Shown: one piece after another, positions 35,865 through 57,220 of the stretch | Layout of the letters: the number at the start of each line of letters is the position of its first letter | Numbering within the stretch: position 1 is the stretch's first letter | Origin: Nitrospinaceae bacterium | GTDB lineage: Bacteria; Nitrospinota; Nitrospinia; Nitrospinales; Nitrospinaceae | Assembly: GCA_965237905.1 (NCBI GenBank) | Contig: OZ250172.1 | Span: forward strand, 1,888,001-1,952,000 | Reading direction: 5' to 3' | Length of the DNA stretch: 64,000 nt | Position numbers and translations under genes: made by a program | Notes under the pieces: generated by a model | Seen by the model: only the letters and a program-made list of their open reading frames with translations | Database searches by the model: none | Told to the model about the DNA's origin: nothing

Positions 35865-36069
35865 ATCCAGCCGGATTCTCAGGACTCTATTCCAATTTCA
35901 ATCCAATAGCCACTATACACTTGTACCGGTATCCGTCAAAAACTCCGTCGTCGGGTCCAAGTTTTTTGACTCTTTCACACCAGCCAACCCAGCTCGAACT
36001 TCAAACTAATCCCCTAACTGTAATAAAAAATTGATTTTAATGGGTTTATGAGTTCACCTCGATTTTGTT

Positions 36070-36085
36070 TGGCACTCATTTTGCT
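36070..36085 (+). promoter_or_regulatory. sigma54 (-24/-12) promoter
   Basis: TGGCAC-TCATT-TTGCT, about 50 nt before the ATG at 36137. Confidence 0.75.
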
Positions 36086-36136
36086 TTAAATAAAAGAGGA
36101 ACCCAATTTACAACCGCTGGAGGTCAACTCACGGTC

Positions 36137-37333
36137 ATGAATATATTGCAGGACCACTCAAGGGAAACTTTAAGGGCTTCCCTGATTCAACAACTCAGTG
36201 CTTATTCACAGAATGAGGATGAATTTTTGCGCCATGTGGATTACCTGGCAGGAACCCAGGGCGAAAAAATTTACCCCGTTCTGCTGAATATCTTCAGCCA
36301 GTTGGATTTTAAGGATGACGAAGCCCAATCCATTTGGCAGGACATGGTTCAGCATCGACAACAGATGATGGACTCCATGGGTCGGCCGGTCAACCTCACC
36401 ACGGCCATTTGCGATTATATGTTGACCGTTCGCCGAGAGTTGATCCATCCCAAAGTGGTGGAGTTGAATCTGTTTGAAGAAACCAGCCATTATTGCAAAT
36501 GCGACCGCCTGACCGGTCTTTATAACCGATCGTATTTTGAGGAGGCTCTCAAGAGCGAGGCGTCACGGTGCAAACGTTATCAAACGGAATTTTCACTCGC
36601 TTTTTTTGATCTCGATCACTTCAAAACAATCAACGATACTTTTGGCCACCAGGCCGGGGATATGGTTTTAAAATCCGTCGCCAAACTGATTCAATCAGAA
36701 AAACGAACCGAGGACATTGCGGCCCGTTTCGGCGGAGAGGAAATCATCCTGATTCTTCCCGGAACTCCAAAATACAATGCTTTGATTATTGCCGAGCGCA
36801 TCCGGCATAAAATCGAATATATGAATTTGAATTTTGAAGGGGAGAAGATGGAAGTTACAGTTACCGGTGGAATCGCCACATTTCCGCTGGATACCGATAT
36901 CGAAACGGAAATGGTGGAGTGTGCCGACCGGGCCCTGTATCGGGCCAAAAGCCAGGGTCGGAACCAGATCGTCCTGTTTTCGGAAGACAAACGCCACAAC
37001 TATCGAATGGGTTTGATCGGTCCCATCAAAGTTCAGGAACTTGGAATGAAAACCAGTCAATTGCCTTCGTTGGGCCGCATCAAAGATCTCAGTCTTTCGG
37101 GTGTGTTGTTTGAATCGCAGAAACCCCTGGATATGGGAAGCCGCATTCAAGTGGAGGTGCCTCTCTCCTCCCGTGATAAACCGTTGGTGATGGTGGGGCG
37201 GGTGACCCGTTTACAGCCGTCGGGTTCCTCTTATGATGTGGGCGCCACGTTTCTGCACTTTGGAGAGCAGGATCGGGTGGACATCAGTAAGCATTTTACC
37301 AGCCTGCTTCGCACTTCCTCTGCCACACATTAA
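36137..37333 (+). CDS. Diguanylate cyclase with C-terminal PilZ (paralog)
   Basis: DRLTGLYNR, I-site RTED, GGEEI. PilZ motifs RHNYR..DLSLSG. GGAGG RBS. Confidence 0.92.
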   Translation: MNILQDHSRETLRASLIQQLSAYSQNEDEFLRHVDYLAGTQGEKIYPVLLNIFSQLDFKDDEAQSIWQDMVQHRQQMMDSMGRPVNLTTAICDYMLTVRRELIHPKVVELNLFEETSHYCKCDRLTGLYNRSYFEEALKSEASRCKRYQTEFSLAFFDLDHFKTINDTFGHQAGDMVLKSVAKLIQSEKRTEDIAARFGGEEIILILPGTPKYNALIIAERIRHKIEYMNLNFEGEKMEVTVTGGIATFPLDTDIETEMVECADRALYRAKSQGRNQIVLFSEDKRHNYRMGLIGPIKVQELGMKTSQLPSLGRIKDLSLSGVLFESQKPLDMGSRIQVEVPLSSRDKPLVMVGRVTRLQPSGSSYDVGATFLHFGEQDRVDISKHFTSLLRTSSATH

Positions 37334-37550
37334 CACCCCTTCTATTTCCAAGTATTGTCATTAAGTAACTAATTGTGCGACCATAGGGTATGAGTACTAT
37401 CAAGAATCCCTATATCCGTCATGGTTTCCCACCCGCAGTCATCCGCCCTGCTGTATGGTTTGATCACCGTTTTACTTCAAGTTTTCGTGACATTGGAGAC
37501 TACCCGCCATCCGGGGTATTCAAGCCTCCTATGAATAGAGACTTGAAAGA

Positions 37551-38783
37551 ATGATAGACAAACAACGTCAATCAAGCACCTCGCCCCAAATGGATAAATA
37601 CCAGGGTGTTCTGCTCTGCCCGCAATGCAACCACGATTACCCTGACCTGGCAAATTACAAAATGGTCCCCGATCAAAATGACCCCCTGGCTCAAAACAAA
37701 GGGCCCAACCGGTTTGTAAAATTCCAATGCGTCAAATGCGGAACGATGCTCAAGAAAACCTTGCCGCTGTGGCTAACATATCTTTCAGGACTGGCAATTA
37801 TTCCTGGTTGCATAATTTTTGCTTATATACTTAGTTATTATGCTGGAAATGCGCCTCTTGGATTTGGAGTAAATCAATTTTATGCAGGGCAATATCTTGA
37901 TTCTTACGGAATGGTGATTTCGCTTGTGCTTCCTCCTCTTATTCTAGTATTACTGGCCATATTACTTGAGAGGCCCTACCAACGCCTGGAAAAGTATGAT
38001 CAAAAGTTTATAAGGACTCAAATCATGCATTCCGTTTTTGGTGTAGGGATTATAGCGATCTTTATCTCTGCATATTTTTTGGTTATTTCATTAAATTTGA
38101 TCAAAGATTTCGTCGCCTCCTCGTCAAAACCAGAATACCAAAAGAGAATTGAATATATCCTGAAATACACTCCGCTATGGAAGGGCCCCTTTTATGTCAT
38201 GCATGGTCAGGGTTATTTATTGAACGCTGATTTTGACGCGGCAATAAAAAACTTTGATCTGGGAATCGAAACCATACAGGATCATTCGTACCCTTATTTT
38301 TACCGTGGAATTGCACACCTGTATTCAAAAAATTACGATCAAGCCGAAGTCGATTTAAACACCGCAATCAAAATAAATACCGGGAAGTGGGAACCGGATG
38401 ATATGTATAAAAGGTTGTGGGTTTACCTGGCCAGGGAGAGAAAAAATGGGTCGGGGCAGGAATATCTTGAGACCCTCCAGAACGATTTAAAACCGGGCCA
38501 ATGGCCTGATTCACTTCTCCTGTTGTTTCTTGGAAAAACAGACCCGCAAGAACTTCAAAAAACTTTCGGAAAGAAAGATAAAATTAAAAAATGCAAAATA
38601 TTTTTCTATTCCGCAGTCTATTTAAAAATGAAAGGCCATGATAAAAAGGCTCGGATTGAATTCGAACGCGCCAAAGAAACTCATGCTTCAGGTTGCTTTG
38701 AACTGCATGCCGCCGGGTTTGAATTGGCTGATCTCACTAATAATAAAACCACTATGGATTCATCAAATAACGGAGGCCTATGA
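37551..38783 (+). CDS. Zn-ribbon + 3 TM + NlpI-like TPR protein
   Basis: CPQC..CVKC, hydrophobic helices, YFYRGIAH TPR, and an NlpI-like LWVYLA..WP tail. Confidence 0.8.
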   Translation: MIDKQRQSSTSPQMDKYQGVLLCPQCNHDYPDLANYKMVPDQNDPLAQNKGPNRFVKFQCVKCGTMLKKTLPLWLTYLSGLAIIPGCIIFAYILSYYAGNAPLGFGVNQFYAGQYLDSYGMVISLVLPPLILVLLAILLERPYQRLEKYDQKFIRTQIMHSVFGVGIIAIFISAYFLVISLNLIKDFVASSSKPEYQKRIEYILKYTPLWKGPFYVMHGQGYLLNADFDAAIKNFDLGIETIQDHSYPYFYRGIAHLYSKNYDQAEVDLNTAIKINTGKWEPDDMYKRLWVYLARERKNGSGQEYLETLQNDLKPGQWPDSLLLLFLGKTDPQELQKTFGKKDKIKKCKIFFYSAVYLKMKGHDKKARIEFERAKETHASGCFELHAAGFELADLTNNKTTMDSSNNGGL

Positions 38784-40141
38784 ATTTATTTCCGTTCGTC
38801 TATCTTCGCCGGAATGAAATAATAAGACCGGTCCAAAGGTCCCACCTCAAATCTTTGATAAAAATAGGGAATATATTCGCTACCGATCAATTTTCAACCA
38901 ACAAAAAAAACTGGGTGCGATTTGATCAGGCCCCGGAGTATGCAGAATATTTTAAGCACTCTCAATCTGCCGTTTTTCCGGAGGAAAAGGAATTTCAGGG
39001 TGTTTTGGTCTGCCCTCAATGCAAACAGGATTACCCTGATCTGACGGATTACAAGCCATCAGCTACAGAACGCGGGATATCGAACTTTGTACGGCCTAAA
39101 AGATTCAAACCGTTTCCTTGCGTTCAATGCGGAACTTTATTAAAAAAAACATTAGGACCGTTGGCCCCCTACCTGAGAGCCGGAGTTGTTTTCTTCAGCT
39201 TCACGATTTTTACTTATATGTTTAATCTATTTTTGGACCATGAGCCTCTTGGGCTTGGTTTTGACATGTATTACGAAAATCAATATCTGGACAATCCAGC
39301 CATGTTCTTCGTTATGATGATGTCTTGTGTTACTTATTTAATCCCGACAATGGCCATGGAGAAATATTCTCAACGTCTGGAATATGGCGAATATGACAAA
39401 AATCCAGGGCGCGTCCATCATCAATACGCCGCTACCGTTATGGCGGTTATTGTATTGATATTTTTTTCCCTTGGGCTTTACCTTAATATCTGCAAGGATC
39501 TGACCACATTTCAGATCAAACCAACGTTTCACCACAACACCCAAAAAATTCTCGAATGGACGCCTTTATGGAAGAGTCCCTATTACACGGTTCAAGGCCA
39601 GGGCCATTTGTTGAATGGGGAGTTTACCGAAGCGGTTAAAAACTTTGATCACTCCATTGAACTCAAAAAGGACCATTCCTATCCATATTTCTATCGAGGC
39701 ATCGCTCACTATTATCTGGATCAATACGACCTTGCCGAATCAGATTTAAACAAGGCGACAGAGATCGATAGCGGCAAATGGGAGCCAGACGATTTATATA
39801 AAAAACTTTGGATATTTTTAGCCAGAGAGAAGCAAGATAAATCAGGTCAAGCTTATATAAAATCCATCCGCAGCGAATTGACGATGAGTCATTGGCCGGA
39901 TTCTCTATTTTTACTATTTACTGGAGAGATAAAAGCAGACCGTTTAAAAAGTATTCCCAGAAAAAGAGAACGGACCAAAAAATGCCAATCGAATTTCTAT
40001 ACAGGAATGTTTTATAAAATGGAGAAGCGTTACGAAGAAGCCAGGGCGGCTTTCGAGCGCGCACAAGAGACCAAAGCTGAAGATTGTATCGAAATTCATG
40101 CTGCCGAATTTGAATTAGCCGACTTGCCCGATAGTCACTAG
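38780..40141 (+). CDS. Paralog with an extra N-terminal GYF-like segment
   Basis: Same architecture (CPQC..CVQC, TM, TPR). ATGA overlap with the upstream paralog. Confidence 0.8.
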   Translation: MNLFPFVYLRRNEIIRPVQRSHLKSLIKIGNIFATDQFSTNKKNWVRFDQAPEYAEYFKHSQSAVFPEEKEFQGVLVCPQCKQDYPDLTDYKPSATERGISNFVRPKRFKPFPCVQCGTLLKKTLGPLAPYLRAGVVFFSFTIFTYMFNLFLDHEPLGLGFDMYYENQYLDNPAMFFVMMMSCVTYLIPTMAMEKYSQRLEYGEYDKNPGRVHHQYAATVMAVIVLIFFSLGLYLNICKDLTTFQIKPTFHHNTQKILEWTPLWKSPYYTVQGQGHLLNGEFTEAVKNFDHSIELKKDHSYPYFYRGIAHYYLDQYDLAESDLNKATEIDSGKWEPDDLYKKLWIFLAREKQDKSGQAYIKSIRSELTMSHWPDSLFLLFTGEIKADRLKSIPRKRERTKKCQSNFYTGMFYKMEKRYEEARAAFERAQETKAEDCIEIHAAEFELADLPDSH

Positions 40142-41443: not shown

Positions 41444-42739
41444 TCAAGCTATTCTTTGGGCAAAATGCAGGGTTTTATCCGCGTACCAGCGGTACGCTGT
41501 TTCGATTTGCGGGGTGTGCAGGTTGGGGGTGTCGTACCGGCCCGCTTCATCGAAGGGCACATACTGCATTTCCATCGAACGATAAAGCTGGTTGAGGTAA
41601 CCCTGAAAATCGGCGTACATCGGAATAAGTTTTTTCAGCTTGGGCATGGCCTGTTCTTTAAACCGCAACAACTCTCTGCCGAAGGGATGAATGGCCGCAA
41701 GCCCGTCACTGCCGTGCCGCTCCTCCGCACAATGCACCAGCGATTCGAAATCCTCCCAATCCTCCAGCGCGTCCACATCCGAAACAAACGCCGGGTCGTC
41801 GTTGAATTTGGCGAGAAACGGGGTATCCAGAAGAATCGAGGCCCCCTGGTTGAAATTCTTGAGATGGGCTCCGAATTTGAAATCGTCGTCCAGGCGGAAT
41901 TGTTTCAAATCTGAATCAAAGTGCCGGAAGTGTTTCGCCAGAACCGGTAACAGCATCAACATGCGGGCCGGCGAACGCAAGGCCTTGCTCAATCCCGCGT
42001 TGAGGATTTTTCCGTCCTTACGGGTTTGGTGCAGGAGTTCAATAATATCTTCCTCGATCGCTGACAAATTGATGGGGTAGACGTTAGGCTCTTTCACATC
42101 GTGAAGCTGTTTGGCCTTTTCAGCGATGACACGGTAATGGTAATTGCGTATTACGAATTCGCTGTCGGGGTTTTCCTTGAAATGCGGGAACATGGCTTGG
42201 CGTGAATTCACCCAGAGAATCAGGTTGTGATGTTTGAGGTCTGCATCCCGCAACACGTTTTCCAGGTCGTACATGAAAGGCAGGTCGCCCGGTTGGAACA
42301 ACACCAGTTCATTGGCGGCGAGGGAGAGTTGGTTGCGCCCGAGGATCATCGTGTTGATCAGCATCAGGTTGTCCGGGTCTTCGTGGACGAACATCACTTT
42401 TTTGCCGCGGGTGTCGATTACATCCAGAAAATGCTCCAGAATGATTTTCACTTCGGTCGAACCCACCACGACGATTTCTTTCAGGCTCGACATCAGCAGG
42501 TTGCCGAGGGCGTAGCACATGATGGGGATGCCCCGGACCAGAAACAGAAATTTGAGACGGTCGATTTCCTCCCCCGCGGCTCGCAGGATGAGGTGGCTCA
42601 CACCTTTTTTCTTCTGGGCAATTTCCCGCCGCGCTTTTTCCAGGGCGAATTTGTCCGCCAAGCTCCGGCTTTCGTAACAGTTGTGGCTGAAGCTGACGAT
42701 GCACTTATCGATTACTGGTTTGTTATTGACGCGGAACAT
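41444..42739 (-). CDS. Hypothetical protein, nucleotidyltransferase/GT-A-like N-terminal fold
   Basis: LILRAAG..KFLFLVRGIPIMCYAL..IVVVG..PGDLPF resembles MobA-like NTP transferases. Confidence 0.6.
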   Translation of the reverse strand: MFRVNNKPVIDKCIVSFSHNCYESRSLADKFALEKARREIAQKKKGVSHLILRAAGEEIDRLKFLFLVRGIPIMCYALGNLLMSSLKEIVVVGSTEVKIILEHFLDVIDTRGKKVMFVHEDPDNLMLINTMILGRNQLSLAANELVLFQPGDLPFMYDLENVLRDADLKHHNLILWVNSRQAMFPHFKENPDSEFVIRNYHYRVIAEKAKQLHDVKEPNVYPINLSAIEEDIIELLHQTRKDGKILNAGLSKALRSPARMLMLLPVLAKHFRHFDSDLKQFRLDDDFKFGAHLKNFNQGASILLDTPFLAKFNDDPAFVSDVDALEDWEDFESLVHCAEERHGSDGLAAIHPFGRELLRFKEQAMPKLKKLIPMYADFQGYLNQLYRSMEMQYVPFDEAGRYDTPNLHTPQIETAYRWYADKTLHFAQRIA

Positions 42740-43050
42740 GGCTTGTTTCGGGAACCCGCAAATGTGCCTCCTGAGCGAGGTCCGCCGAGATATCTCCCTG
42801 AGAAATTTTGAATCTTTTAAGTTATTGTAATTTAAAAACTAACCCCATTTCTACCAATTTTTGTTTGAAATCAAATAGTTAGTTAAACCTCATGCTACAG
42901 GGCCGCAGTGGCTCCTTTAAGCTTTCTTTCGAAAGGCGTTTAAATGCGGGTTTTCCAGCTCACCGGCCAACCTCCCAACTCTGCGAAATGACTTGATTTA
43001 TTGAGTTTATTATTCATACAATTAGTAAATACCCCTCATCAAGGTGCCGC

Positions 43051-44661
43051 ATGGGAGACCCAACCCATATTATAGAATTGATCGATCAAATGCTGGAGGA
43101 AACGGCGGATAGGCCGGACCTTCAGGAGAAAATATTCGATCTGCGCGACGCCCTTCTGCAGGCCCAGCAGTCTGCTCAACAGTATAATCTTAAAATCAAA
43201 ACGCTGGAAGAAACCATTCGCCAGCTCAAACTGCCGGCCCATCGCATCGGAACCATTCTCGGCAAGGGACAAGACGACTTGTACCGCCTGAATGTGGGCG
43301 GGACCGACTACCAGGCGGCCGTCTCTCCCGAGATTCTCGAAGACGGAGAATTGCAGGTAGGGGATCAAGTTGCGGTCAACGAAGGATTTGTCGCGATCGC
43401 CAAACTTCCCCGGCCCGAAAGAGGCCCGATATCCCGCATTGTGTCACGTTTGGACGATGGCCATTGGCTGGTCGGCGGCGGCGCCAACACTTCCGAATCC
43501 ATGGTGATTCCCTGCACCGAGTTGGAACAGGAAACCTTTAAGGAAGGGGATGAAGTCGTTCTCGATCCCACACAGAAGGTGATTATGAAGCGCCTCCCCA
43601 AACGCCAGTCCAAATCGCTGGTGGAGGACGATTACGTTCCGGTTACCTGGAAGCAGGTCGGGGGACAGGAGAAAGTAATCAAAGAAGTCCGCAAGGTCAT
43701 CGAGTACCCCATTCTACACGAAGAGATTCTTAATAAGATGGAATACCGCATGCCCAAGGGGTTCCTGTTTTACGGCCCGCCCGGTTGCGGCAAAACGCTG
43801 ATCGGCAAGGCGATCCTGTCCGACGTGGTTTCCCAGCTCAAGTCCAAGGATGAAGGCAGTAGGAATTTGGAAGGCCGGTTTATCCACGTCAAGGGTCCGG
43901 AAATTCTCAACATGTGGCTCGGTGAATCGGAACGCAAAGTCCGCGAAATTTTCAAACGGGCGCGCGAGTATAAAGAAAAGGGGAAACTCCCTTTCATCTT
44001 CATCGACGAAGCCGAATCCGTACTCGGTACGCGCCAGGCCATGCGTGGCAACAATATTTCCAATACCCTGGTCCCGATGTTCTGCGCGGAGATGGACGGC
44101 ATTCAGTCGGTGCGCGAAATGGTGGTGATCCTCGCAACCAACCGGCCCGATTTGATGGACCCCGCGATTTTAAGACCGGGACGCATCGACCGCAAAATTA
44201 AAGTGGGACGGCCCAGCCGTGAAGATTGCGAAGCCATTTTAAAAGTGTACCTCAAGCTGGAACTCCCGACCGAAGGCGACCTGATCAACCCGTTCCTTGA
44301 TCAACTGTTCAAGAGGACACCGGAGCAGGAAGCGCTGGTTTTGACACTCCGTAGCGGCGGGTTCAAAAAACTGTATTGGAAAGATTTCATTTCCGGCGCT
44401 ATTCTGGAGGGCATCGTTTTGCGTGCCAAGGAGCGCGCCATCGAGCGGGCCATTACCGGAGAAGAATTGCAGATCAAGAGTGACGACATGACGCAGGCTC
44501 TGCACAACGAGTTCACCGAGAACAGCGTTCTGCCGGCCGATTCCAATATGGAAGACTGGCTCCGGCTGCTCGACTTTGACCCGAAGAACGTGGCACGGGT
44601 ACGGCGGCCCAACGATTCCGATCAGGCCGCATCCGATACCCTTAGCCGGTCGATCATATGA
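43051..44661 (+). CDS. arc: Proteasome-associated AAA ATPase (ARC/Mpa)
   Basis: Coiled coil, OB domains, GPPGCGKT, KGPEILNMWLGESER, FIDEAE, DPAILRPGRID. Confidence 0.93.
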   Translation: MGDPTHIIELIDQMLEETADRPDLQEKIFDLRDALLQAQQSAQQYNLKIKTLEETIRQLKLPAHRIGTILGKGQDDLYRLNVGGTDYQAAVSPEILEDGELQVGDQVAVNEGFVAIAKLPRPERGPISRIVSRLDDGHWLVGGGANTSESMVIPCTELEQETFKEGDEVVLDPTQKVIMKRLPKRQSKSLVEDDYVPVTWKQVGGQEKVIKEVRKVIEYPILHEEILNKMEYRMPKGFLFYGPPGCGKTLIGKAILSDVVSQLKSKDEGSRNLEGRFIHVKGPEILNMWLGESERKVREIFKRAREYKEKGKLPFIFIDEAESVLGTRQAMRGNNISNTLVPMFCAEMDGIQSVREMVVILATNRPDLMDPAILRPGRIDRKIKVGRPSREDCEAILKVYLKLELPTEGDLINPFLDQLFKRTPEQEALVLTLRSGGFKKLYWKDFISGAILEGIVLRAKERAIERAITGEELQIKSDDMTQALHNEFTENSVLPADSNMEDWLRLLDFDPKNVARVRRPNDSDQAASDTLSRSII

Positions 44662-46148
44662 ACGAAATTGTACCTCTGCTGGGGATCGAAACGGAATACG
44701 GTATCATCCGGGAAGATCAAGGGGAATCTGACCCGGTCGAAGAGTCGATGCGCCTGCTGGCCCGCTGTGAAGCGAAAAGTGTTTTCAAGGCCTGGGCTTA
44801 TAACCGCGAGCGCACGCATCAGGATATGCGCGGGTTTCAGGTGTCCCGGCTGGCGCAGGATGAAGAGGAAGACGAATTTTGCGAACAGGACCGCCAGCGG
44901 CCCTATTCGTATTGGGAAATGAAAAGCGACCGGGTGCTGACCAACGGTGCGCGTTTTTACAACGATCACACGCACCCGGAATACAGCACCCCGGAATGCC
45001 GAACCGTGTTCGATCTGGTCGCACACGATCTGGCCGGCGAAACCATCGTCGGTGAATGTGTCCGCCTCCGCAACCAGGATTTGGGCGGCGACTATTTGCA
45101 GTTGTTTAAAAACAACACGGATTACAGCGGCCACAGTTACGGCACGCATGACAATTATCTGATTCCGCGCAAACTGCCGTTCGATGTCTGGGTCCAGCAT
45201 CTGGTCCCGTTTCTGGTGACGCGGCAATTGTACGCTGGGGCGGGAAAAGTCGGCGCGGAACGAAAAAACGAAGACGGGTTCACCGGTCTCCAGCTGGCGC
45301 AACGCGCCGATTTTATCGACTGCGTTCTCAGTATCGAAACCATGACCCAGCGGCCCATCATCAACACCCGCGATGAGCCGCATGCGACTCAGGATTACCG
45401 ACGTCTGCATTTGATATTGGGGGACGCCAACATGTCGCCCTACGCGACGGCGTTGAAGGTGGGGACTACCCGATTGGTGTTAACCTTGATCGGCGCCCAG
45501 AAAATGGACTCGCCGTTTGAATTGGCGGACCCGGTGGCGGACGTCCAGCGTGTGTCGCGGGATACTACCGGCAAGATTCCCCTGAAATTGCAATCGGGGA
45601 AAACTGTCACCCCGCTGGAAATCCAGGAATGGTATCTGGAGCAGGCGCTCAAGCAAACCGGTCTTTCCGGCGATACGGAAGAATGGGACTGGGTCACCCG
45701 CGAGTGGGGACGGACGTTGAACGACCTGAGGCATCACCGGGAAAACCTGGCCGACCGTATCGATTGGGCGATCAAAGAAAGCCTTTTCAAGGATTTTATG
45801 GAAGCGGAAGGCTTGCAATGGGAAGACCCGATTTTACAAAGTCTCGATTTGGAGTATCATAACCTTAACCCGGAACGTGGGCTGTATTACAGTTTGCGCG
45901 ACCAAGGCAGTGTGGCCGGGTTGATCGAGCAAAACAAAATCGACGCTGCCGTCCACCAGGCCCCGCAGGATACACGGGCCCGGATTCGAGGGCAGGCGGT
46001 CGAGCGGGAGCGTGACCATATTAAAAACATCCATTGGACGGGAATCGAATTCAACAATGGTGAGTATTTAGATCTGTCCGGACTCATCACTAAAGAAGAT
46101 GTCGTTCAGGTCCTGGATTCACACAAGGAGCAGTTTGCATGGAAATGA
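44658..46148 (+). CDS. dop: Dop-like deamidase/depupylase
   Basis: GIETEYG, LTNGARFYNDHTHPEYSTPEC (Dop-type), RPIINTRDEPHA, RLHLILGDAN. Confidence 0.88.
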   Translation: MNEIVPLLGIETEYGIIREDQGESDPVEESMRLLARCEAKSVFKAWAYNRERTHQDMRGFQVSRLAQDEEEDEFCEQDRQRPYSYWEMKSDRVLTNGARFYNDHTHPEYSTPECRTVFDLVAHDLAGETIVGECVRLRNQDLGGDYLQLFKNNTDYSGHSYGTHDNYLIPRKLPFDVWVQHLVPFLVTRQLYAGAGKVGAERKNEDGFTGLQLAQRADFIDCVLSIETMTQRPIINTRDEPHATQDYRRLHLILGDANMSPYATALKVGTTRLVLTLIGAQKMDSPFELADPVADVQRVSRDTTGKIPLKLQSGKTVTPLEIQEWYLEQALKQTGLSGDTEEWDWVTREWGRTLNDLRHHRENLADRIDWAIKESLFKDFMEAEGLQWEDPILQSLDLEYHNLNPERGLYYSLRDQGSVAGLIEQNKIDAAVHQAPQDTRARIRGQAVERERDHIKNIHWTGIEFNNGEYLDLSGLITKEDVVQVLDSHKEQFAWK

Positions 46149-46315
46149 ATGATCCCTTGCGGCGGGAAGAGAAGAAAGAGTCCACCCCGGACAGGAAGGA
46201 CAGTGGTCCTTCCAAACCCGATGTGAATCGGCCGGGGCGCGATGATCTTCTCAAGCGAATGAAAAAAGTCGACCCCAAGCAATCTGAAAAATACAAACAG
46301 CGAACGGGTCAATGA
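46139..46315 (+). CDS. ubact: UBact, ubiquitin-like (Pup-analogous) modifier, 58 aa
   Basis: MEMNDPLRREEKKESTPDRKDSGPSKPDVNRPGRDDLLKRMKKVDPKQSEKYKQRTGQ*. AAGGAG RBS at 46125-46130, C-terminal RTGQ, and it occupies the pup slot. Confidence 0.93.
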   Translation: MEMNDPLRREEKKESTPDRKDSGPSKPDVNRPGRDDLLKRMKKVDPKQSEKYKQRTGQ

Positions 46316-47112
46316 GCGATAAACCGGATAATTTTAATGGGCCGGGAGATTTTATCGATCTCCTGGAGCGGTCGGGTTATTCCTGGCCCAAAGCGATTGC
46401 AGGTTTGACCGCCATCGACAAGGCCAGTCTGCCCCAGGGCACCACCGTGCTGGCTTTTCATTTCAAGGATGGCGTGATCGTTGCCGGAGACCGCCGTGCC
46501 ACCGCGGGCAATGCCATTATGTACGAGCGGTGCGACAAGGTGATTCCCATCGACGACTATTCCCTGATGGCCATCGCCGGGGTTCCCGCCACGGCGTTCG
46601 AGATGGCCCGCGTCCTTTCGCACAACTTCGAATATTACCGCCGGTCGCAACTGCAACCCTTAAGCACCGAAGGCAAAATCCGCGCCCTGTCCAAACTTTT
46701 GAAGGACAACATGGGACTCGCCCTGCAGGGTGTCGGCGCGGTCAGCCCCCTCTTTGCGTCCTACGACAAAAAAGAAGATAAGCCCTATCTTTATTATTAC
46801 GATCTTCTGGGAGCGCAGTTTGAAATTCAGACCCACACCGCCACCGGTTCCGGGTCGCCGGTGATTCGCGGTATCCTCGAATACGAAGATCTCTGGGGAA
46901 CTCAAAAGCTGGTGCAAAGGGATATGAAGGGAGCCGCCAAACTGGCCATACGGCTTTTGCAAACTGCCGGGCAGTTCGACAGCGCCACCGGGCAGGCCCG
47001 TCCCGAAGACAAAATTTATCCGATTATTGCCAGCGTTACCGATCAAGGTTACCAATTCATGCCGGAAGAGGAACTGGCGGGACTGTTTCAGGAATCCACT
47101 AAAAGGAAATAA
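46312..47112 (+). CDS. prcB: 20S proteasome beta subunit
   Basis: 43-aa propeptide, then G|TTVLA..AGDRRAT..K..GSGS. Confidence 0.93.
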   Translation: MSDKPDNFNGPGDFIDLLERSGYSWPKAIAGLTAIDKASLPQGTTVLAFHFKDGVIVAGDRRATAGNAIMYERCDKVIPIDDYSLMAIAGVPATAFEMARVLSHNFEYYRRSQLQPLSTEGKIRALSKLLKDNMGLALQGVGAVSPLFASYDKKEDKPYLYYYDLLGAQFEIQTHTATGSGSPVIRGILEYEDLWGTQKLVQRDMKGAAKLAIRLLQTAGQFDSATGQARPEDKIYPIIASVTDQGYQFMPEEELAGLFQESTKRK

Positions 47113-47114
47113 CC

Positions 47115-47861
47115 ATGTTTGATGAACCGTTTCGCTGGATGGAGGCCATTTCCACCCGCCACAGTTACGTCCAGGAGAAACTGAAAAAAGGCCAGCCGGT
47201 GCTTGCGGTGCCTTATAAAGAAGGCTCGCTGGTGATGGGATTTACCGCCCAGCCCGGAAAAATTTTTGAAGTGTATGACCGCATCGCGCTGGGTAGTCTC
47301 GGACATCCTGCCGACGTCGAACGTCTGCGCATGACTCTCTTGGACATGGCGCACGTGGAAGGATTCAACCGGTCGGACAAAGATGTGACCATTGCCCGGC
47401 TCCTCCAGTTCGGCATCGCTCCCGCCATGAAACAGAACTTTGAAGAAGTGATGCGGGCGCCGTATCTGGTCAAACTGTTGTTCGCCGAAATCGATTTCGA
47501 TAACCGACCGTTATTCTTCCGGCTCAATTACGACGGGCACTGGGAGATGTTCAAAAAGGGAGCGGTGATTTCCGGCAACGATAAGGAATCGAAATGGATT
47601 CAAAAACAAATTGAGCAGACCGATTTTGCCTCGCTTTCGCTGAAGCAAGCATTGAAGGAAGCGTGCCGCCTGTGGGAAGAGGGCAAGAAGCAAGCTTCGC
47701 CCGAATCTGAAGACGCCGAGGAACAACCGATGACCCTGTCCGAGGCGTTCGACCGGTGGACACTGGAGGCAGCGGTGCTCTCCACCAAAACAGAGCGTAA
47801 GGCCTTGTACCGGGTGCTGACTCCGGATGAAATTGAACCCTTGAAAGCGGCGGCCAAATAA
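47115..47861 (+). CDS. prcA: 20S proteasome alpha subunit
   Basis: KIFEVYDRIALGSLG..DVERLR, LEAAVL, and operon position. Confidence 0.88.
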   Translation: MFDEPFRWMEAISTRHSYVQEKLKKGQPVLAVPYKEGSLVMGFTAQPGKIFEVYDRIALGSLGHPADVERLRMTLLDMAHVEGFNRSDKDVTIARLLQFGIAPAMKQNFEEVMRAPYLVKLLFAEIDFDNRPLFFRLNYDGHWEMFKKGAVISGNDKESKWIQKQIEQTDFASLSLKQALKEACRLWEEGKKQASPESEDAEEQPMTLSEAFDRWTLEAAVLSTKTERKALYRVLTPDEIEPLKAAAK

Positions 47862-47863
47862 AT

Positions 47864-49321
47864 ATGAAACGCAGAATATACGGGATTGAAACGGAGTACG
47901 GCCTCTTGATCAAGGAGGATGATTTCAAATACGGTCCCATTGACGTCGCGGTTCGCATCAAAAATCATATCTTCGACCAGAAGCAGGGTGTGCTCGATTT
48001 GCATTACCGCGCCAACGACGAGCCGCCCGGCAACGGTGGATTCCTCGCCAACGGCGGCCGGATTTATCTCGACATGGGCCATCTCGAATACGCCTCGCCG
48101 GAATGTTCCAATCTGGTGGACCTGGTCACGTTCGACCGCGCCGGGGACAATATTGTGCAAAAAGCACTGGAGGAATTGGGTTGGGCGGACCAGGTGGCGT
48201 TTATTAAAAACAATGTCGATCTGGAAACCAACGCCACCTTCGGGTGCCATGAGAATTATCTGGTCAGCCGCGCGTTCCAGTTTGATAACCGCGAAAACCT
48301 GCGGCTTCTGGCGTCGTTTCTGGTAACCCGGCAGATTTATGCCGGCACCGGACGAACCGGTGCCTGCAACCCGCAACCGTTCCGCGATTGGGATGATGTT
48401 CACCAGACGCGTAAAGATACCGAAGAGGTCAATTTCCAGATATCCCAGCGTGCGGATCATATCCCCAACGAGTTTTACCGATGGGTGCAATACAACCGCG
48501 CCATCGTCAACACCCGCGACGAACCGTTGTCCGATCCCAGCAAGTACCGGCGCATTCATTTGTTGGTCGGTGATTCCAACATGAGTGATTTCGCCTGCGC
48601 CCTCAAGATGGGCACCACGTCCCTGATGATGGAGCTGATCGAGTTGGGAGTGGCGGACCCGGCATGGATTCTATCCGATTCCGTGAATGCCATGCGGGAT
48701 ATCTCCCGGGATCAGGAGTTCAAGTGGGAAATCACTCTGCGGGACGGTAACCAAAGCACCGCGCTGGAGTTGCAATGGGAAATGATGCAGGTTGGGAAAA
48801 AATACCTGGCGGGATCTTCGAGTGACGCTGATTGGGTGTTGGGAGCTTGGGAATCGGTGCTGACCGATATGCCCAAAGGACCGGAAGCGCTCATCGGACG
48901 GGTGGACTGGGCCAGCAAATACTGGATGCTCACCGAATTCATGAAGTCGGAAAATGTGGGATGGCAGGATCCCTGGATTAAAAGTCTCGACCTGGAGTTT
49001 CATAATCTCAATAAAGCGCACGGACTGTATTGGGGACTGGAAGAAAACGGAGACGCCCATCGCAAAACCTCCGATGAAGCCATCCTGTTCGCGCAGTCCA
49101 ACGCACCCAAGGGCACCCGCGCCGACGGTCGCGGCGAATTGGTAAAAACATTATTGGAATGCCAGACCGGTTATCTGATCGACTGGATCGGTTTCCGCCT
49201 GAATAAAGAAGAACCCTTCCTTATGCTGGACCCCTTCATTTCCTACAAAAAAGAAATTCAAGACTACCTGCGAAGTATGGATTTGCAGGACCCCTTCGGC
49301 GGTAAAAATTATTTTAGTTAA
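47864..49321 (+). CDS. pafA: PafA-like UBact/Pup-protein ligase
   Basis: RRIYGIETEYG, FLANGGRIYLDMGHLEYASPEC (PafA-type), GCHENY, RIHLLVGDSN. Confidence 0.88.
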   Translation: MKRRIYGIETEYGLLIKEDDFKYGPIDVAVRIKNHIFDQKQGVLDLHYRANDEPPGNGGFLANGGRIYLDMGHLEYASPECSNLVDLVTFDRAGDNIVQKALEELGWADQVAFIKNNVDLETNATFGCHENYLVSRAFQFDNRENLRLLASFLVTRQIYAGTGRTGACNPQPFRDWDDVHQTRKDTEEVNFQISQRADHIPNEFYRWVQYNRAIVNTRDEPLSDPSKYRRIHLLVGDSNMSDFACALKMGTTSLMMELIELGVADPAWILSDSVNAMRDISRDQEFKWEITLRDGNQSTALELQWEMMQVGKKYLAGSSSDADWVLGAWESVLTDMPKGPEALIGRVDWASKYWMLTEFMKSENVGWQDPWIKSLDLEFHNLNKAHGLYWGLEENGDAHRKTSDEAILFAQSNAPKGTRADGRGELVKTLLECQTGYLIDWIGFRLNKEEPFLMLDPFISYKKEIQDYLRSMDLQDPFGGKNYFS

Positions 49322-49485: not shown

Positions 49486-49833
49486 TTGGAGGACAATTGT
49501 CTGTTTTGCAAAATTGCCAGTGGAAAGATGGATTCCGAAACAGTTTATAATGATGGGAATTTGATAGCTATTAAAGACATCAATCCGCAGGCCCCAACGC
49601 ATCTGTTGATCATTCCTAAAAAGCATTTTGGAACTCTCATGGATATTGAGGATTCGGACAAGGAGCTGATGGGGTCCGTGTGTACCTTGGCCAAATTCCT
49701 GGCCCAGGAAAACGATCTGGAGGCATCCGGCTTCCGTTTGGTGCTCAATTGCGGGTCGGGCGCCGGGCAGTCGGTGTTTCATATTCATTTTCATCTGTTG
49801 GGCGGAAGGCCCATGAAGTGGCCTCCCGGTTAA
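49486..49833 (+). CDS. hinT: Histidine triad nucleotide-binding protein
   Basis: CLFCKI, DINPQAPTH, GQSVFHIHFHLLGGR. TTG start after AGGAGG. Confidence 0.93.
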   Translation: MEDNCLFCKIASGKMDSETVYNDGNLIAIKDINPQAPTHLLIIPKKHFGTLMDIEDSDKELMGSVCTLAKFLAQENDLEASGFRLVLNCGSGAGQSVFHIHFHLLGGRPMKWPPG

Positions 49834-49837
49834 TCGC

Positions 49838-50863
49838 ATGATCACAGTCGAACAATTATATGAAAAACTAAAACCGATTAAGGTCGGCAGTCCCCTGTGC
49901 GAATTTACGCTCGAGCATTGTCAGCGGATTTATCCCATCATCAGCCGCATCGAAGAACTCAAGCGGAAGAAGAACGCCATCATCCTGGCGCACAATTATG
50001 TCGCGCCGGAAATTTTGTATGGAGTCGCCGACCACACTGGAGATTCCTACGGCCTGGCCAAGATCGCCCGCGATTCCGATGCGGAAGTGATCGTCTTTCC
50101 CGCCGTGCGGTTCATGGCGGAAACCGCAAAAATTTTAAATCCCAATAAAACGGTCCTCGATCCCAATCCCGACGGCGGTTGTTCCCTGGCGGATGGTATT
50201 ACCGCCGCCGATGTCCGGCGCCTGCGGAAGGAATTTCCCGATCACACCTTTGTCTGCTATATCAACACCACCGCCGAAGTAAAGGCTTTGTGTGACGTGT
50301 GCGTGACGTCCTCCAATGTGTATCACATTGTGGAAACCATCGATAATGACAATATCTATTTTCTGCCCGACAAGTTGATGGCCATGAATGTGGTTCATTA
50401 TTTGCAGGATCGGGGAATCAAAAAAAATATTTCCTGGTACGACGGCACCTGTTATGTGCACGAGGAATACGCGCCCGACGCCATCGACTTTGTCCGCACC
50501 GGCAATCCGAATGTCGATGTGCTGGTGCATCCGGAATGCCATCCCGCAGTGGTCCAGAAGGCGGATTTCGTGGGGAGTACCACGAGTATGCTCAACCACG
50601 TTCGCGAATCCAGTGGCGATACGTTTTTCCTGCTTACGGAGTGCGGGCTGACCGGTATTTTACAATCCGAGTTTCCCGAAAAGCGGTTCGTGGGTTCCTG
50701 TACCATGTGCAAATACATGAAGTCCAATTCCCTGCAGGATGTTTTGCAAGCCTTGGAGAATCCGCGTCCGGATCAGATCATTGAGCTTTCCCCTGAAGTC
50801 CGGCAGAACGCGCTGCGTTGTGTCGAACGCATGTTCGAATACACGGAACAAATCTCTTCCTGA
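49838..50863 (+). CDS. nadA: Quinolinate synthase
   Basis: ILAHNY, GDS, FMAETAKIL, CSLA, YINT, CYVH, HPEC, CKYMK. Confidence 0.95.
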   Translation: MITVEQLYEKLKPIKVGSPLCEFTLEHCQRIYPIISRIEELKRKKNAIILAHNYVAPEILYGVADHTGDSYGLAKIARDSDAEVIVFPAVRFMAETAKILNPNKTVLDPNPDGGCSLADGITAADVRRLRKEFPDHTFVCYINTTAEVKALCDVCVTSSNVYHIVETIDNDNIYFLPDKLMAMNVVHYLQDRGIKKNISWYDGTCYVHEEYAPDAIDFVRTGNPNVDVLVHPECHPAVVQKADFVGSTTSMLNHVRESSGDTFFLLTECGLTGILQSEFPEKRFVGSCTMCKYMKSNSLQDVLQALENPRPDQIIELSPEVRQNALRCVERMFEYTEQISS

Positions 50864-50870
50864 ACGCCCT

Positions 50871-54056
<3,186 letters not shown>

Positions 54057-55865
54057 TTAATGGTCGTGCGTGGCTGCGGATTTGCCGATCTCCGCCTTCA
54101 CCACAAAACTGTTTTTGTGCACGTACTCGCTTCCCGGTTCGATGCCGCTGAGCACTTCCACATGGACGCCGTCGTTTTCGCCCAGCTCCAGCGGGCGGGC
54201 TTCGTAACGGTTATCGACCTTAATGAACACCACCGACCAGTCGCGTATCGTCTGAATCGCGTCCACCGGCACTGCCAGCGGCACCTTCCGCGAGGCCTGA
54301 ACCAGTTTCACCGTAACGTACATGCCGGGCCGCCACAGGCGTTGTTTGTTGGGAATGACCACCCGCCCGGTCACGGTACGGCTCTTCTTATCGATCAATG
54401 CTCCCAGGTAAGTGAGTTTCCCTTTGGCCTCCAGGCCCAGCTTGTCAGCCCGGACGGTGACTTGCTGGCCCAGTCGCACCACGTTCAGGTGCTTGGCCGG
54501 AACGGCGATATTGACCCAGACTTCGGACAAGTCAGCCAGCACGAACACATCGAAATCTTTTTTAACCGACTCCCCAACGGCGATGTGCTTTTGAATCACT
54601 TCCCCGTTAATTTCAGAGCGCAATTCGAATCGAGTGAATCGCCGCTTCTGCTCATGAGACAAATTATTGACTTCCCGTGAGGTCAACCCCAATGCTCGCA
54701 GTTTCTGCGCCAGGGTTTTGATTTCAAGGTTGGCCTGTTCCACGTTCTTTTGTTTTTCGAGCAGAGCCAGTTTGTTGCCATACGCGATTTTTTCACGCAG
54801 AGAAATGTACCTGGCCTCGGCGCTTTTATATTCCTCCATCGCCAGCAGGTATTCCGACCGGGAGGAAATTTTCTTTTGGTACAGCGAGAGCTCACGTTCA
54901 TAAACGGCCTTGGACCGAATCAGTCGTCCATAAGCCGGAACGATCTGCGCGCGCGATTCACCCAGTACCAGTGCGTTGATCTTTTCGTAAAGCGTATCCA
55001 GGTCCAATCCCTGTTGCAGAAGGTCGAGCATGACCCGGTTATTTTTGTTGATCAGTTTCTGCCGTTCGAGTTCGACGCGCACCGGTTCGGCCTGCTTGAC
55101 AGCCGTTAAATATTCGGTTTTGGCGTCGGCCAACTCGCGTGAATCCAGAATCGCCAGAATGTCGCCTTTTTTCACTGGGTCACCCAGATCCTTGTGAACG
55201 CGGGTGACCATGGCATCCAGCCGCGGCACGACGTGCGCCACGCGCTTTTCATGCAGGCCGATCTCGCCGTTGAGTTGCACGACCTGATGAATTTCGGCGG
55301 GTCCGGCCCGCGTGGTTTCGATGCCGGCGTTCTTCGCCGCTTCTTCGGAAATCTGGGCGCGCGCTTCTATCTGCGAGTATTCCCACTGATAATTTTTCCC
55401 ATGCCATCCGGCTTTTATTTTTACGTCGAAAGAATGCGGTTCGACCACGATCCGGTCACCCAACAGGTAATCGCCGGAAGGGCGGAATTTGATAGTGTCC
55501 ACGCGCTCCAGCCGGTGCAGGTCGATGTTCAGTTTGATATGATCGAGCAAGATATTGTTACCCTCCGCGTCCGTTGCGTAGATGCGGAATTGCGGCGGCA
55601 CGTTGCGTTCGTAAATGGTGACCTCCAAATTCAAATCGTCCTTGGAAAATATGCGGCCGCCGTGCGGTCCTTTGTCTTCTGCATGTTCTTCGCCTGCGGT
55701 TTCCTCGCCTTCGGAGTGGCCCTGTTCTCCTTCCTCCATATGACCGGCGGGTTCGTCATGTCCATGTTGATCGTGGATTCCCGGGGGCTCGGTTTGCAGA
55801 ATCATGACCGCCAGCACGGCGCCTACCGCCAGGATGATCAGGATGGATAAGGATTTACGGTTCAT
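54057..55865 (-). CDS. czcB: CzcB-type periplasmic adaptor with His-rich N-terminus
   Basis: HDQHGH..GPHGG, membrane-fusion protein motifs, WRPGMYV, C-terminal ATHDH. Confidence 0.9.
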   Translation of the reverse strand: MNRKSLSILIILAVGAVLAVMILQTEPPGIHDQHGHDEPAGHMEEGEQGHSEGEETAGEEHAEDKGPHGGRIFSKDDLNLEVTIYERNVPPQFRIYATDAEGNNILLDHIKLNIDLHRLERVDTIKFRPSGDYLLGDRIVVEPHSFDVKIKAGWHGKNYQWEYSQIEARAQISEEAAKNAGIETTRAGPAEIHQVVQLNGEIGLHEKRVAHVVPRLDAMVTRVHKDLGDPVKKGDILAILDSRELADAKTEYLTAVKQAEPVRVELERQKLINKNNRVMLDLLQQGLDLDTLYEKINALVLGESRAQIVPAYGRLIRSKAVYERELSLYQKKISSRSEYLLAMEEYKSAEARYISLREKIAYGNKLALLEKQKNVEQANLEIKTLAQKLRALGLTSREVNNLSHEQKRRFTRFELRSEINGEVIQKHIAVGESVKKDFDVFVLADLSEVWVNIAVPAKHLNVVRLGQQVTVRADKLGLEAKGKLTYLGALIDKKSRTVTGRVVIPNKQRLWRPGMYVTVKLVQASRKVPLAVPVDAIQTIRDWSVVFIKVDNRYEARPLELGENDGVHVEVLSGIEPGSEYVHKNSFVVKAEIGKSAATHDH

Positions 55866-57220
55866 CGTCGTTTCTCCCTTTGTTTCGGCTGAGGGCGGGG
55901 CTCGGGTAAAGGAGACACCGCCTGCCCGGTCAACCGCTCCACGTCGGCGACCGCTTTATGGTATTCCGCCAGTGCATCGAGAAACTGCGACCGCGCGTTG
56001 AACCAGGTCCGCTGGCTGTCCAGCACTTCGAGATAACCGAATTTGCCGAAGCGGTATCCCTCGTTGACCGCTTCAAACGCGGTTCGCGCGCCCGGCAGGA
56101 TTTTGGTTTTGAGCGATGTCACCTGGCTGTGGGCGTTGGCCAGGCGGGTGTACCCGGTGGCCAGCGCCGCGTTCAGTTTCAATGCGACCGCCCTTCGCTC
56201 AGCCTTGGCCTTTGCGAGACGGTGCCGCGCTTCGGCGATAGCGCCCTGGTTGCGGTCGAACAGTTGAATGGGAATCGAGAATTCAACAATGAAGGAGTTG
56301 TCGTTGGTCTCCTCGAACCAGCGCGCCCCGGCACCGACTCTGAGGTTGGGAACGGCGTTGGCTTGTTCCAGATCAACTGCGGCTGTGCGTTGCGCCATCT
56401 CCGTGGCCCAGCGGGCGAGATCGGGGTTGCTTTGCATCCGTTCCGCCAGAGTGTTAAACGGCGGCACGGACCTGATCAGGTAAAGGCGTCCCGTCACTCT
56501 TTTGAAGTGCGGCGTCATGCTGGCCCAGAACGAAGCCAGCCGCCGGTACGCCGCCATCAGATTATTCTTGGACTGCTGGAATTGAATCTGCGTGGTGGAC
56601 AGCGCGACCTGTGCTTTGACCTCGTGGATGGGAGATACCTTGCCCGCAGTCACCCGCGCTTTGACTGCGTTGTAGGAATTTTTGGAAAGTTGCACCAGCT
56701 CCCGCGCCAGGCTCAGCTTTTCCTGGGCGGTCAGGGCGTCGGTGTACGCCTTCGCCACCCGCGTCAGAATATCCATCCGCGCGGTTTCGTAATCCCAGAA
56801 CGCGAGGTCTTTGTGCGACAACGCTTCTTTCTCCCGCTTGGTGCGCTTGCCGCCTAGTTCGATCACCTGGCTGAGCACGAGGGTGGACTGCGACTGCTGG
56901 ACATCCCTGAAGCCGCCGGAGCCGAACACATCCTGCACGTCAAATAGGAGGTTGGGATTTTTATACAGGCCGGCCTGTAGAGCCCGCGCCTCGCGTGCAC
57001 GCACTTCCAGCGAGAACGCTTCCAGCTCCGGATTGTGGAGCAGGACCTGCGCGATCACTTCCCGCAGGGTCAGCACTCCGCCAGCTGGCTTCTGCAGGGT
57101 GATCTCTCCGGACGGGCCGGTGGATTTCTTTATCGGAATTTTTGGGTTCGCCCCGAAGGAGATTGAAGGCAATAGTATCAACAATGCCACCAGGACAAGT
57201 CGTTTGATAACGGGTTTCAT
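55862..57220 (-). CDS. czcC: CzcC/TolC outer membrane factor
   Basis: NPEL..ELGGKR..LFDRNQG..GKFGYLEVLDSQR. Confidence 0.9.
   Translation of the reverse strand: MKPVIKRLVLVALLILLPSISFGANPKIPIKKSTGPSGEITLQKPAGGVLTLREVIAQVLLHNPELEAFSLEVRAREARALQAGLYKNPNLLFDVQDVFGSGGFRDVQQSQSTLVLSQVIELGGKRTKREKEALSHKDLAFWDYETARMDILTRVAKAYTDALTAQEKLSLARELVQLSKNSYNAVKARVTAGKVSPIHEVKAQVALSTTQIQFQQSKNNLMAAYRRLASFWASMTPHFKRVTGRLYLIRSVPPFNTLAERMQSNPDLARWATEMAQRTAAVDLEQANAVPNLRVGAGARWFEETNDNSFIVEFSIPIQLFDRNQGAIAEARHRLAKAKAERRAVALKLNAALATGYTRLANAHSQVTSLKTKILPGARTAFEAVNEGYRFGKFGYLEVLDSQRTWFNARSQFLDALAEYHKAVADVERLTGQAVSPLPEPRPQPKQREKRR

Follow-up and report, generated by a model that had tools for sequence, protein, structure and literature searches.

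A UBact-proteasome operon of a Nitrospinaceae bacterium, with a tyrosine-free ARC tail and a probably PafA-derived ligase

Does a six-gene cluster on a Nitrospinaceae chromosome encode a tag-and-degrade pathway of the UBact kind, and how would such a pathway ligate its tag and engage its proteasome? The cluster, arc-dop-ubact-prcB-prcA-pafA-like, lies at 43051-49321 of a 64,000-nucleotide stretch of contig OZ250172.1 (assembly GCA_965237905.1, positions 1,888,001 to 1,952,000), which we call the window and to which all coordinates refer. Here we report that it is an intact member of the already described UBact system, ordinary when set beside its relatives. Only two points are fresh, both of them system-wide: a tail without tyrosine on the ATPase ARC, and a middle segment of the tagging enzymes that groups by tag type. 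We consider it probable that the intact operon serves a likely tag-and-degrade pathway in which the ligase derives from PafA and ARC docks without a tyrosine.

The UBact conjugation-proteasome system of Gram-negative bacteria was reportedly described by Lehmann, Udasin, Livneh and Ciechanover in 2017 (doi 10.1016/j.bbrc.2017.01.037), and is said to be defined by a tag ending in R[ST]G[EQ] and by the cluster arc-dop-ubact-prcB-prcA-pafA. This operon shares the tag family, the R[ST]G[EQ] end and the gene order, and nothing distinguishes it from the copies of its relatives. Lehmann et al. 2017 is cited in PMC5751360 and PMC12751074, UBact is named in PMC11354881, and Iyer et al. 2008 (PMC2588565) reported, for Nitrospirae and Verrucomicrobia, Pup-like genes in the company of PafA and proteasome genes. 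With the Pup system of Actinobacteria and Nitrospirota the operon has gene order, homologous enzymes, fold, catalytic motifs and predicted logic in common. It differs in a tag that is basic and ends in RTGQ rather than acidic and ending in GG[EQ], in an ARC without GQYL/GHYL, in an alpha subunit without a conserved Gly, and in a ligase without Thr-Thr and without the HxWEGxSSA-type alpha-loop.

By analogy with the Pup system, Dop would convert the Gln at the end of UBact to Glu by deamidation, and the PafA-like enzyme would join this Glu to lysines on target proteins. ARC would then unfold the tagged proteins and hand them to the 20S core, likely via its tyrosine-free tail.

The operon, its tag and its distribution

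The features discussed are as follows, all on the plus strand.

43051-44661 (+): arc, mpa-type proteasomal AAA+ ATPase, 536 aa
44658-46148 (+): dop, predicted deamidase/de-conjugase, 496 aa
46139-46315 (+): ubact, the tag, 58 aa
46312-47112 (+): prcB, 20S beta subunit, 266 aa
47115-47861 (+): prcA, divergent 20S alpha subunit, 248 aa
47864-49321 (+): pafA-like, predicted UBact ligase, 485 aa, PF03136
48533-49072 (+): codons 224-403 of pafA-like, the segment grouping with UBact Dop, boundaries approximate

A preliminary description of this DNA had reported the gene order with overlapping or 2-nt junctions, and we recovered all six plus-strand open reading frames (ORFs) where it had placed them, with junctions of -4, -10, -4, +2 and +2 nt from arc through to pafA-like. 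The RTGQ terminus of the 58-aa tag and the G|T autocleavage site of the beta subunit (G43|T44) were likewise present. Its identification of a UBact-proteasome locus is borne out: the tag scores 74.7 bits against NF033388 (cut-off 35) and 74.6 bits against PF20513 (cut-off 27.8), and proteins 81-93% identical to it in Nitrospinaceae and Nitrospina are already named UBact in public records. The same description called ubact hidden, which is correct insofar as an ORF filter set at 60 aa would miss it at 58 aa; near-identical proteins are nevertheless publicly annotated as UBact. As a hidden rarity the locus does not stand up: 94 of 120 Nitrospinota genomes carry UBact, which makes it ordinary for the lineage. 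Among the operon proteins searched against NCBIfam and Pfam profiles, UBact alone passes an NCBIfam cut-off, and the products of arc, dop, prcB, prcA and pafA-like all miss the equivalog cut-offs of the Pup system.

The N-terminal half of the tag is rich in proline and charged residues, its C-terminal half is basic, and a Shine-Dalgarno-like AAGGAG lies 8 nt before its ATG, inside the 3' end of dop. Net charge over the last 30 residues is +1 to +7 in 110 UBact sequences versus -3 to -9 in 13 Pup sequences. Homology between UBact and Pup was sought by profile comparison and was not significant (probability 0.5%, E 0.13). When UBact was modelled in complex with two ARC N-terminal regions (residues 1-186), the prediction scored 0.00 and gave evidence for neither side.

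Gln ends the tag in all 30 loci compared and is the lineage norm (114 of 120 homologues among the matches listed). Pup ending in Gln requires deamidation by Dop before ligation (PMC8223512), and by this biochemistry a Dop-before-ligase step for UBact is a sound inference. In two loci (L035 and L036) UBact ends in Glu and dop is retained; the presence of Dop is therefore no test of deamidation. Dop itself scores 419.7 bits against TIGR03688 (cut-off 492.3) versus 372.9 against TIGR03686, and its best structural match in the PDB is Dop of A. cellulolyticus (E 1.5e-95). Aligned to solved Dop, it shows the GIETEYG motif with E11 and E13, W46 of the Dop-loop, catalytic D103 and the alpha-loop Thr. 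That Thr, which contacts the final residue of the tag (Cui et al., PMC8599861), is retained in 12 of 12 UBact Dops.

Within Nitrospinota, UBact is present in this genome (G000) and in 93 of 101 others, spread over four families of the same order, and in none of 18 genomes from five other families; PF03136 was absent from all four other-family genomes checked for it. The order arc-dop-ubact-prcB-prcA-pafA is kept in 16 of 20 related loci, which excludes a chance arrangement. One of the 16, L045, shows the first four genes in order, with prcA and pafA missing within the stretch fetched. Three loci of a single genus (L042, L043, L044) are reordered as arc-dop-prcA-ubact-prcB-pafA, and L048 (G100:C1:56600-72600) reads arc-dop-prcB-prcA-ubact-prcB-pafA, with a TT active site in both prcB copies and a dop split in the assembly. 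Presence across the order together with the kept gene order makes this locus an ordinary member of the UBact system.

Beyond the phylum, the pattern applied to the genome collection took Glu-ending tags only, and the figures that follow give no Gln/Glu frequency outside Nitrospinota. It found at least 120 loci, 80 of them with flanks among the matches listed; the hosts, again among those matches, include Nitrospirota, Verrucomicrobiota, Armatimonadota, Latescibacterota, Gemmatimonadota, Bipolaricaulota and others. Complete loci in these phyla mostly have the same six-gene order, and several Verrucomicrobia keep ubact-prcB-prcA separate from arc, dop and the ligase (L056, L063, L100, L104, L110, L113, L118, L124 and L128, likewise among the matches listed). 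In four of five such genomes tested, arc was located elsewhere. Candidatus Nitrospira defluvii and a Leptospirillum genome carry UBact and Pup systems as separate operons. Actinobacterial-type dop, pup and pafA also occur on a record filed as an unverified bacteriophage (L251, MT835496.1 35724-53100), likely host DNA.

Searches across the whole genome (3.09 Mb, one contig) recovered exactly two genes of the Pup-ligase family, both within the UBact operon, and five short ORFs ending in GG[EQ]; no ORF of at least 45 aa ending in G[QH]Y[LF] was found. With no Pup operon in the genome to blur the picture, the locus is a clean, complete single-system test case for a pathway apparently known from genome analysis only. 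Taken alone the operon adds nothing new, being the core operon of one Nitrospinota order with its tag annotated in relatives.

A tail without tyrosine and the 20S pocket

ARC scores 373 bits against TIGR03689, below the cut-off of 504.75, and matches PF17758, PF16450 and PF00004. It has an N-terminal helical region, two OB domains, Walker A at 242-249, Walker B at 315-320, a W289-L-G pore loop and an Arg finger at 375. Its C-terminus is RSII, without the tyrosine of GQYL/HbYX, and the ARC-20S step named in the preliminary description cannot go by that textbook motif here.

In every one of 21 loci of the same order the tail reads RS[IMV]I, and among wider loci 48 of 49 ARC ORFs end in two aliphatic residues (among the matches listed; L062 is broken by frameshifts). 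With duplicates merged and only ARCs retained whose profile match reaches the tail, the penultimate aromatic residue is absent from all 76 ARCs of UBact loci, 71 ending in two aliphatics and five in IE. The other 28 ARCs comprise 25 ending in G[HQ]Y[LF] and three UBact-type ARCs on loci not including ubact. The stretch after the last [DE]W is also shorter, at 33-35 residues in 73 of the 76 versus mostly 38 in Pup-type ARCs, and four of four further verrucomicrobial ARCs end in VI or VV. Candidatus Nitrospira defluvii and Leptospirillum-type genomes provide an internal control, their Pup-side ARC ending in GHYL and their UBact-side ARC in QII or xIE.

The catalytic motifs of the core particle are intact. 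PrcB (165 bits against TIGR03690, cut-off 192) has a 43-aa propeptide, a QG|TT cleavage site with Thr1 as residue 44, and the equivalents of Asp17 and Lys33. PrcA is more divergent (52.9 bits against TIGR03691, cut-off 139) and was aligned to solved bacterial PrcA. Its pocket Lys49 is present in 97 of 97 UBact-type sequences, and the pocket Lys also in 14 of 14 Pup-type sequences. A position that is Gly in all 14 Pup-type sequences, and which we take to line the tyrosine site, is instead Gln in 64, Lys in 21 and Arg in nine of the 97 UBact-type sequences, and is Lys22 here. Since the sampled kin are not independent, these tail and pocket counts show conservation and are not a test of co-evolution. 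Mpa docks by GQYL with its penultimate Tyr, and an alpha-subunit Lys binds the C-terminus (PMC8755798, PMC12288473, PMC4254994). Based on the sequence co-variation, we suggest that the C-terminal carboxylate of ARC pairs with the invariant alpha Lys49 and that the two aliphatics replace Tyr; ARC would thus likely dock on the 20S core through its tyrosine-free tail. If so, the tail is a natural exception to the HbYX rule across at least six phyla.

At its other end (43051-43200), the UBact-type ARC begins with a short helix-turn-helix-like segment, often acidic and here IIELIDQMLEETADRPDL, before the coiled coil, in contrast to the long continuous coil of Pup-type ARCs. This segment is a candidate site for the basic tag. 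A simple charge swap on the coiled coil was considered and rejected: over the 35 residues that precede the OB domain, net charge shows no reversal, at about 0 in Pup-type ARCs and -8 to +5 in UBact-type ARCs (the motif is missing in part of the rows).

The PafA-like ligase and its mosaic phylogenetic signal

The last gene had been read as plain pafA, a label that its alpha-loop, which lacks the conserved Thr-Thr, and its mosaic phylogenetic signal do not fit. The protein scores 328.9 bits against TIGR03686, below the 551.3 cut-off, and its core retains catalytic D70, R212 and the essential Arg R218. It also carries ligase-type F60, A77, H199, I200, S238 and D440. Positions separating PafA from Dop include F47, A65, H174 and D418 (Hecht et al. 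2021, PMC7947786), to which F60, A77, H199 and D440 are equivalent. The engineered Dop2PafA-alpha of that study is the source of these ligase-type positions, and the natural UBact enzyme shares them but has a third kind of alpha-loop (here HIPNEFYRWVQYNR), with the consensus F[FY].WVQ.NR found in neither PafA nor Dop. There is no canonical Dop-loop; a conserved DLH.R..DEP.GNGGFL loop occupies its position. A structure model (mean predicted local distance difference test score, pLDDT, 87.4) has the Dop/PafA fold, with Z 48.1 to Dop 5LRT and 43.2 to PafA 4BJR.

Armatimonadota and Bipolaricaulota UBact ligases (L057, L068, L072, L083, L088, L111, L125, L130) have another alpha-loop, for example ISSRVRFNR in L072, PK-WD instead of TRDE, and a longer loop at the catalytic Asp.

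The signal for the origin of the enzyme differs between its parts. The whole-protein trees are undecided because regions of the protein conflict: a tree joining UBact ligases with Pup ligases is not rejected by the approximately unbiased (AU) test (p-AU 0.225 in set 1, 0.247 in set 2). A UBact ligase sister to UBact Dop over the whole protein, which FastTree favoured, was thus not established, and we adopted a mosaic reading instead. Site likelihoods favour a division of ligase from Dop at residues 1-88, 194-223 and 404-466, are about neutral at 89-193, and favour a division of UBact from Pup at 224-403, a clustering reached in none of 5000 permutations. The boundaries 223 and 403 were chosen on set 1 and tested on the non-overlapping set 2 (58 sequences, another aligner mode); the AU tests used fixed subtrees and the trees are unrooted. 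In set 2 the outer regions (1-223 plus 404-485) reject the pairing of the two UBact enzymes (p-AU 0.0007 under LG, 0.003 under C10), more weakly after removal of trait columns (0.007) or of trait columns and Hecht positions (0.03). The middle segment rejects the ligase from Dop division at p-AU 1e-11 or lower, and still does so at 0.0004 after 20 extreme sites were trimmed from each end. On its free tree, one change (99) suffices for tag type, against nine for enzyme type. The top sites of the segment are W324, F359, E363, W371, S374, E378 and N381.

The middle segment is also acid-shifted: over residues 340-385 the mean net charge is -4.8 to -6.7 in UBact enzymes versus -1.3 to +0.1 in Pup enzymes, which matches the basic UBact tag. 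Recent gene conversion was rejected, as the middle-segment tree never gives the ligase and the Dop of one genome as supported sisters; any conversion is therefore old. Our best reading of these alignments is a PafA-derived ligase whose middle segment would follow the tag, whether by old gene conversion, by co-evolution or by the two together. Segment 224-403 would have been kept alike to that of the operon-mate Dop by old segmental conversion and/or by co-evolution with the basic tag, and could decide between UBact and Pup, allowing both systems to coexist in Nitrospira and Leptospirillum.

Several observations weigh against a PafA-derived ligase, against its proposed tag specificity or against tail docking. 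FastTree, run on 68 context-labelled proteins and 123 representatives (20 representatives without genomic context were labelled Pup-type by motifs or tree position), pairs UBact ligases with UBact Dops at a Shimodaira-Hasegawa (SH) support of 99. An IQ-TREE mixture model on 48 rows, whose search was not completed, gives the same pair an SH-like approximate likelihood-ratio (SH-aLRT) support of 90, and the N-terminal region alone, in the first taxon set, does not reject it (p-AU 0.06). The proposed specificity also assumes that segment 224-403 holds the tag-binding groove. The alpha-loop differs from those of both PafA and Dop at most positions, V208/Q209 stand in place of Thr-Thr (all 12 Pup ligases compared have the Thr, and none of the 12 UBact ligases does), and the modelled loop (201-220) has a pLDDT of about 60 or lower and forms strand and loop, with no helix. 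The T183/T184 double mutant of PafA is weakly active (PMC7947786). For docking, the penultimate Tyr is the main determinant (PMC8755798, PMC12288473), so its absence could mean no direct docking. In the literature searched, with most subscription papers outside its scope, we found no experiments on any UBact component.

A rival reading makes the last gene a ligase of separate origin, which arose by duplication of the ancestor of UBact Dop, with loss of the Dop-loop, a rebuilt alpha-loop and convergence on PafA residues. Such an origin, which would imply a natural second conversion of hydrolase to ligase, is in our judgement unlikely. It draws on the pairing of the two UBact enzymes in whole-protein trees, on an alpha-loop unlike that of PafA, and on the finding that 20 substitutions turn Dop into a ligase (Hecht et al., PMC7947786); the stems of both ligase groups are moreover long (0.57 and 0.55 versus 0.22 and 0.25), and long-branch attraction could create the signal dividing ligase from Dop. 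What tells against it is that the outer regions back the joining of ligase with ligase (p-AU 0.003 under the mixture model and 0.03 after trait and Hecht columns are removed), that the whole-protein AU test leaves this joining unrejected, and that Pup ligases and Pup Dops also intermix in the middle segment, which indicates a segment-specific process in both systems. We think it very unlikely that the gene encodes no protein ligase at all, being a second hydrolase or a small-amine ligase, or that the tag is mainly regulatory. The lost Thr-Thr and WEG..SSA alpha-loop, a D-x-x-H loop of Dop length in most members, the extra conserved loop at the Dop-loop position and a model slightly nearer Dop than PafA (Z 48.1 and 43.2) would suit that view, but the six PafA-type residues F60, A77, H199, I200, S238 and D440 are in place, and this is the sole other member of the family in the genome, in the pafA position beside intact 20S genes.

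Proteasome-less corynebacteria unfold tagged proteins without direct hand-over, and the same question arises for ARC: it might not be tail-docked on the 20S core, either unfolding without direct hand-over or relying on an adaptor encoded elsewhere. The missing penultimate Tyr (76 of 76), a tail that, counted from the last [DE]W, falls 3-5 residues short of the Pup-type one, and the separation of ubact-prcB-prcA from arc in several Verrucomicrobia are all compatible with this. We nonetheless hold it to be quite unlikely, given a two-aliphatic tail conserved across at least six phyla, an alpha pocket Lys that is invariant (97 of 97) beside a position that changes along with the tail, and a genome without an ORF of at least 45 aa ending in G[QH]Y[LF] that could supply another activator. 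As to physiology, the preliminary description named nitrogen recycling as plausible; bulk recycling of amino acids and nitrogen in starvation is a role that we find unlikely. Its precedent is in M. smegmatis only, with a pattern not seen in M. tuberculosis (PMC8223512); no nitrogen gene or regulator flanks the operon, whose conserved neighbours are an NTP-transferase-like gene, tonB, hit and nadA; and order-wide retention equally fits general protein quality control.

On a PafA-derived ligase and a docking ARC, we tentatively propose, from the sequence patterns, that UBact may represent a second, tyrosine-free docking code, made up of two aliphatic end residues and a remodelled alpha pocket, together with an acid-shifted tag-recognition module of about 180 residues common to ligase and deamidase and held similar by gene conversion or co-evolution, and that UBact and Pup could form orthogonal channels in one cell, though we would not lean on this heavily. 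If true, the module would be swappable for reprogramming tag specificity; if segment 224-403 sets tag choice, it would explain the two separate tagging systems of Nitrospira and Leptospirillum and provide an orthogonal ligase-tag pair. Neither the tyrosine-free ARC tail nor the mosaic ligase was found in the literature searched, most subscription papers and all supplements lying outside its scope, and the supplementary alignments of Hecht et al. may contain such sequences; Lehmann 2017 may or may not describe the two features.

Surroundings of the operon

Divergently upstream of arc, at 41444-42739 (-), lies a 431-aa gene with a weak MobA-like NTP-transferase match (E 0.0009, below cut-off) and no NCBIfam family. 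The gene holds this place in 18 of 20 related loci, where tonB usually comes next. Downstream on the operon's strand, at 49486-50863 (+), are hit (HinT-like) and nadA, found in 13 and 15 of the 20 related loci, respectively. A scan for terminators found no convincing one between the operon and this pair, and by their arrangement hit and nadA may be co-transcribed with the UBact operon. Promoter and terminator scans overall were at shuffle level (10 versus 6.0 +/- 2.4, and 15 versus 11.4 +/- 3.4); one sigma-70-like site lies at 42993-43022. Four RNA-labelled sequencing runs contained 5-6% of the words looked for, and the contigs of these runs, which come from related strains, span portions of the operon, ubact among them; contigs cannot show transcription.

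Elsewhere in the window, a gene for Lon protease lies at 54-2465 (+), about 40 kb upstream; the genome retains ordinary AAA+ proteases beside the proteasome. At 34674-40141 (+), a tandem pair of GGDEF-PilZ genes precedes a tandem pair encoding TPR proteins, which carry Cys-pair motifs close to their N-termini; the TPR pair lies in a stretch of low GC content (40% at 38001-40000). Convergent on nadA, at 50871-57220 (-), is an efflux cluster resembling CusA, CusB and an outer-membrane factor, in which the CusA label comes from reading the sequence and not from a family match.

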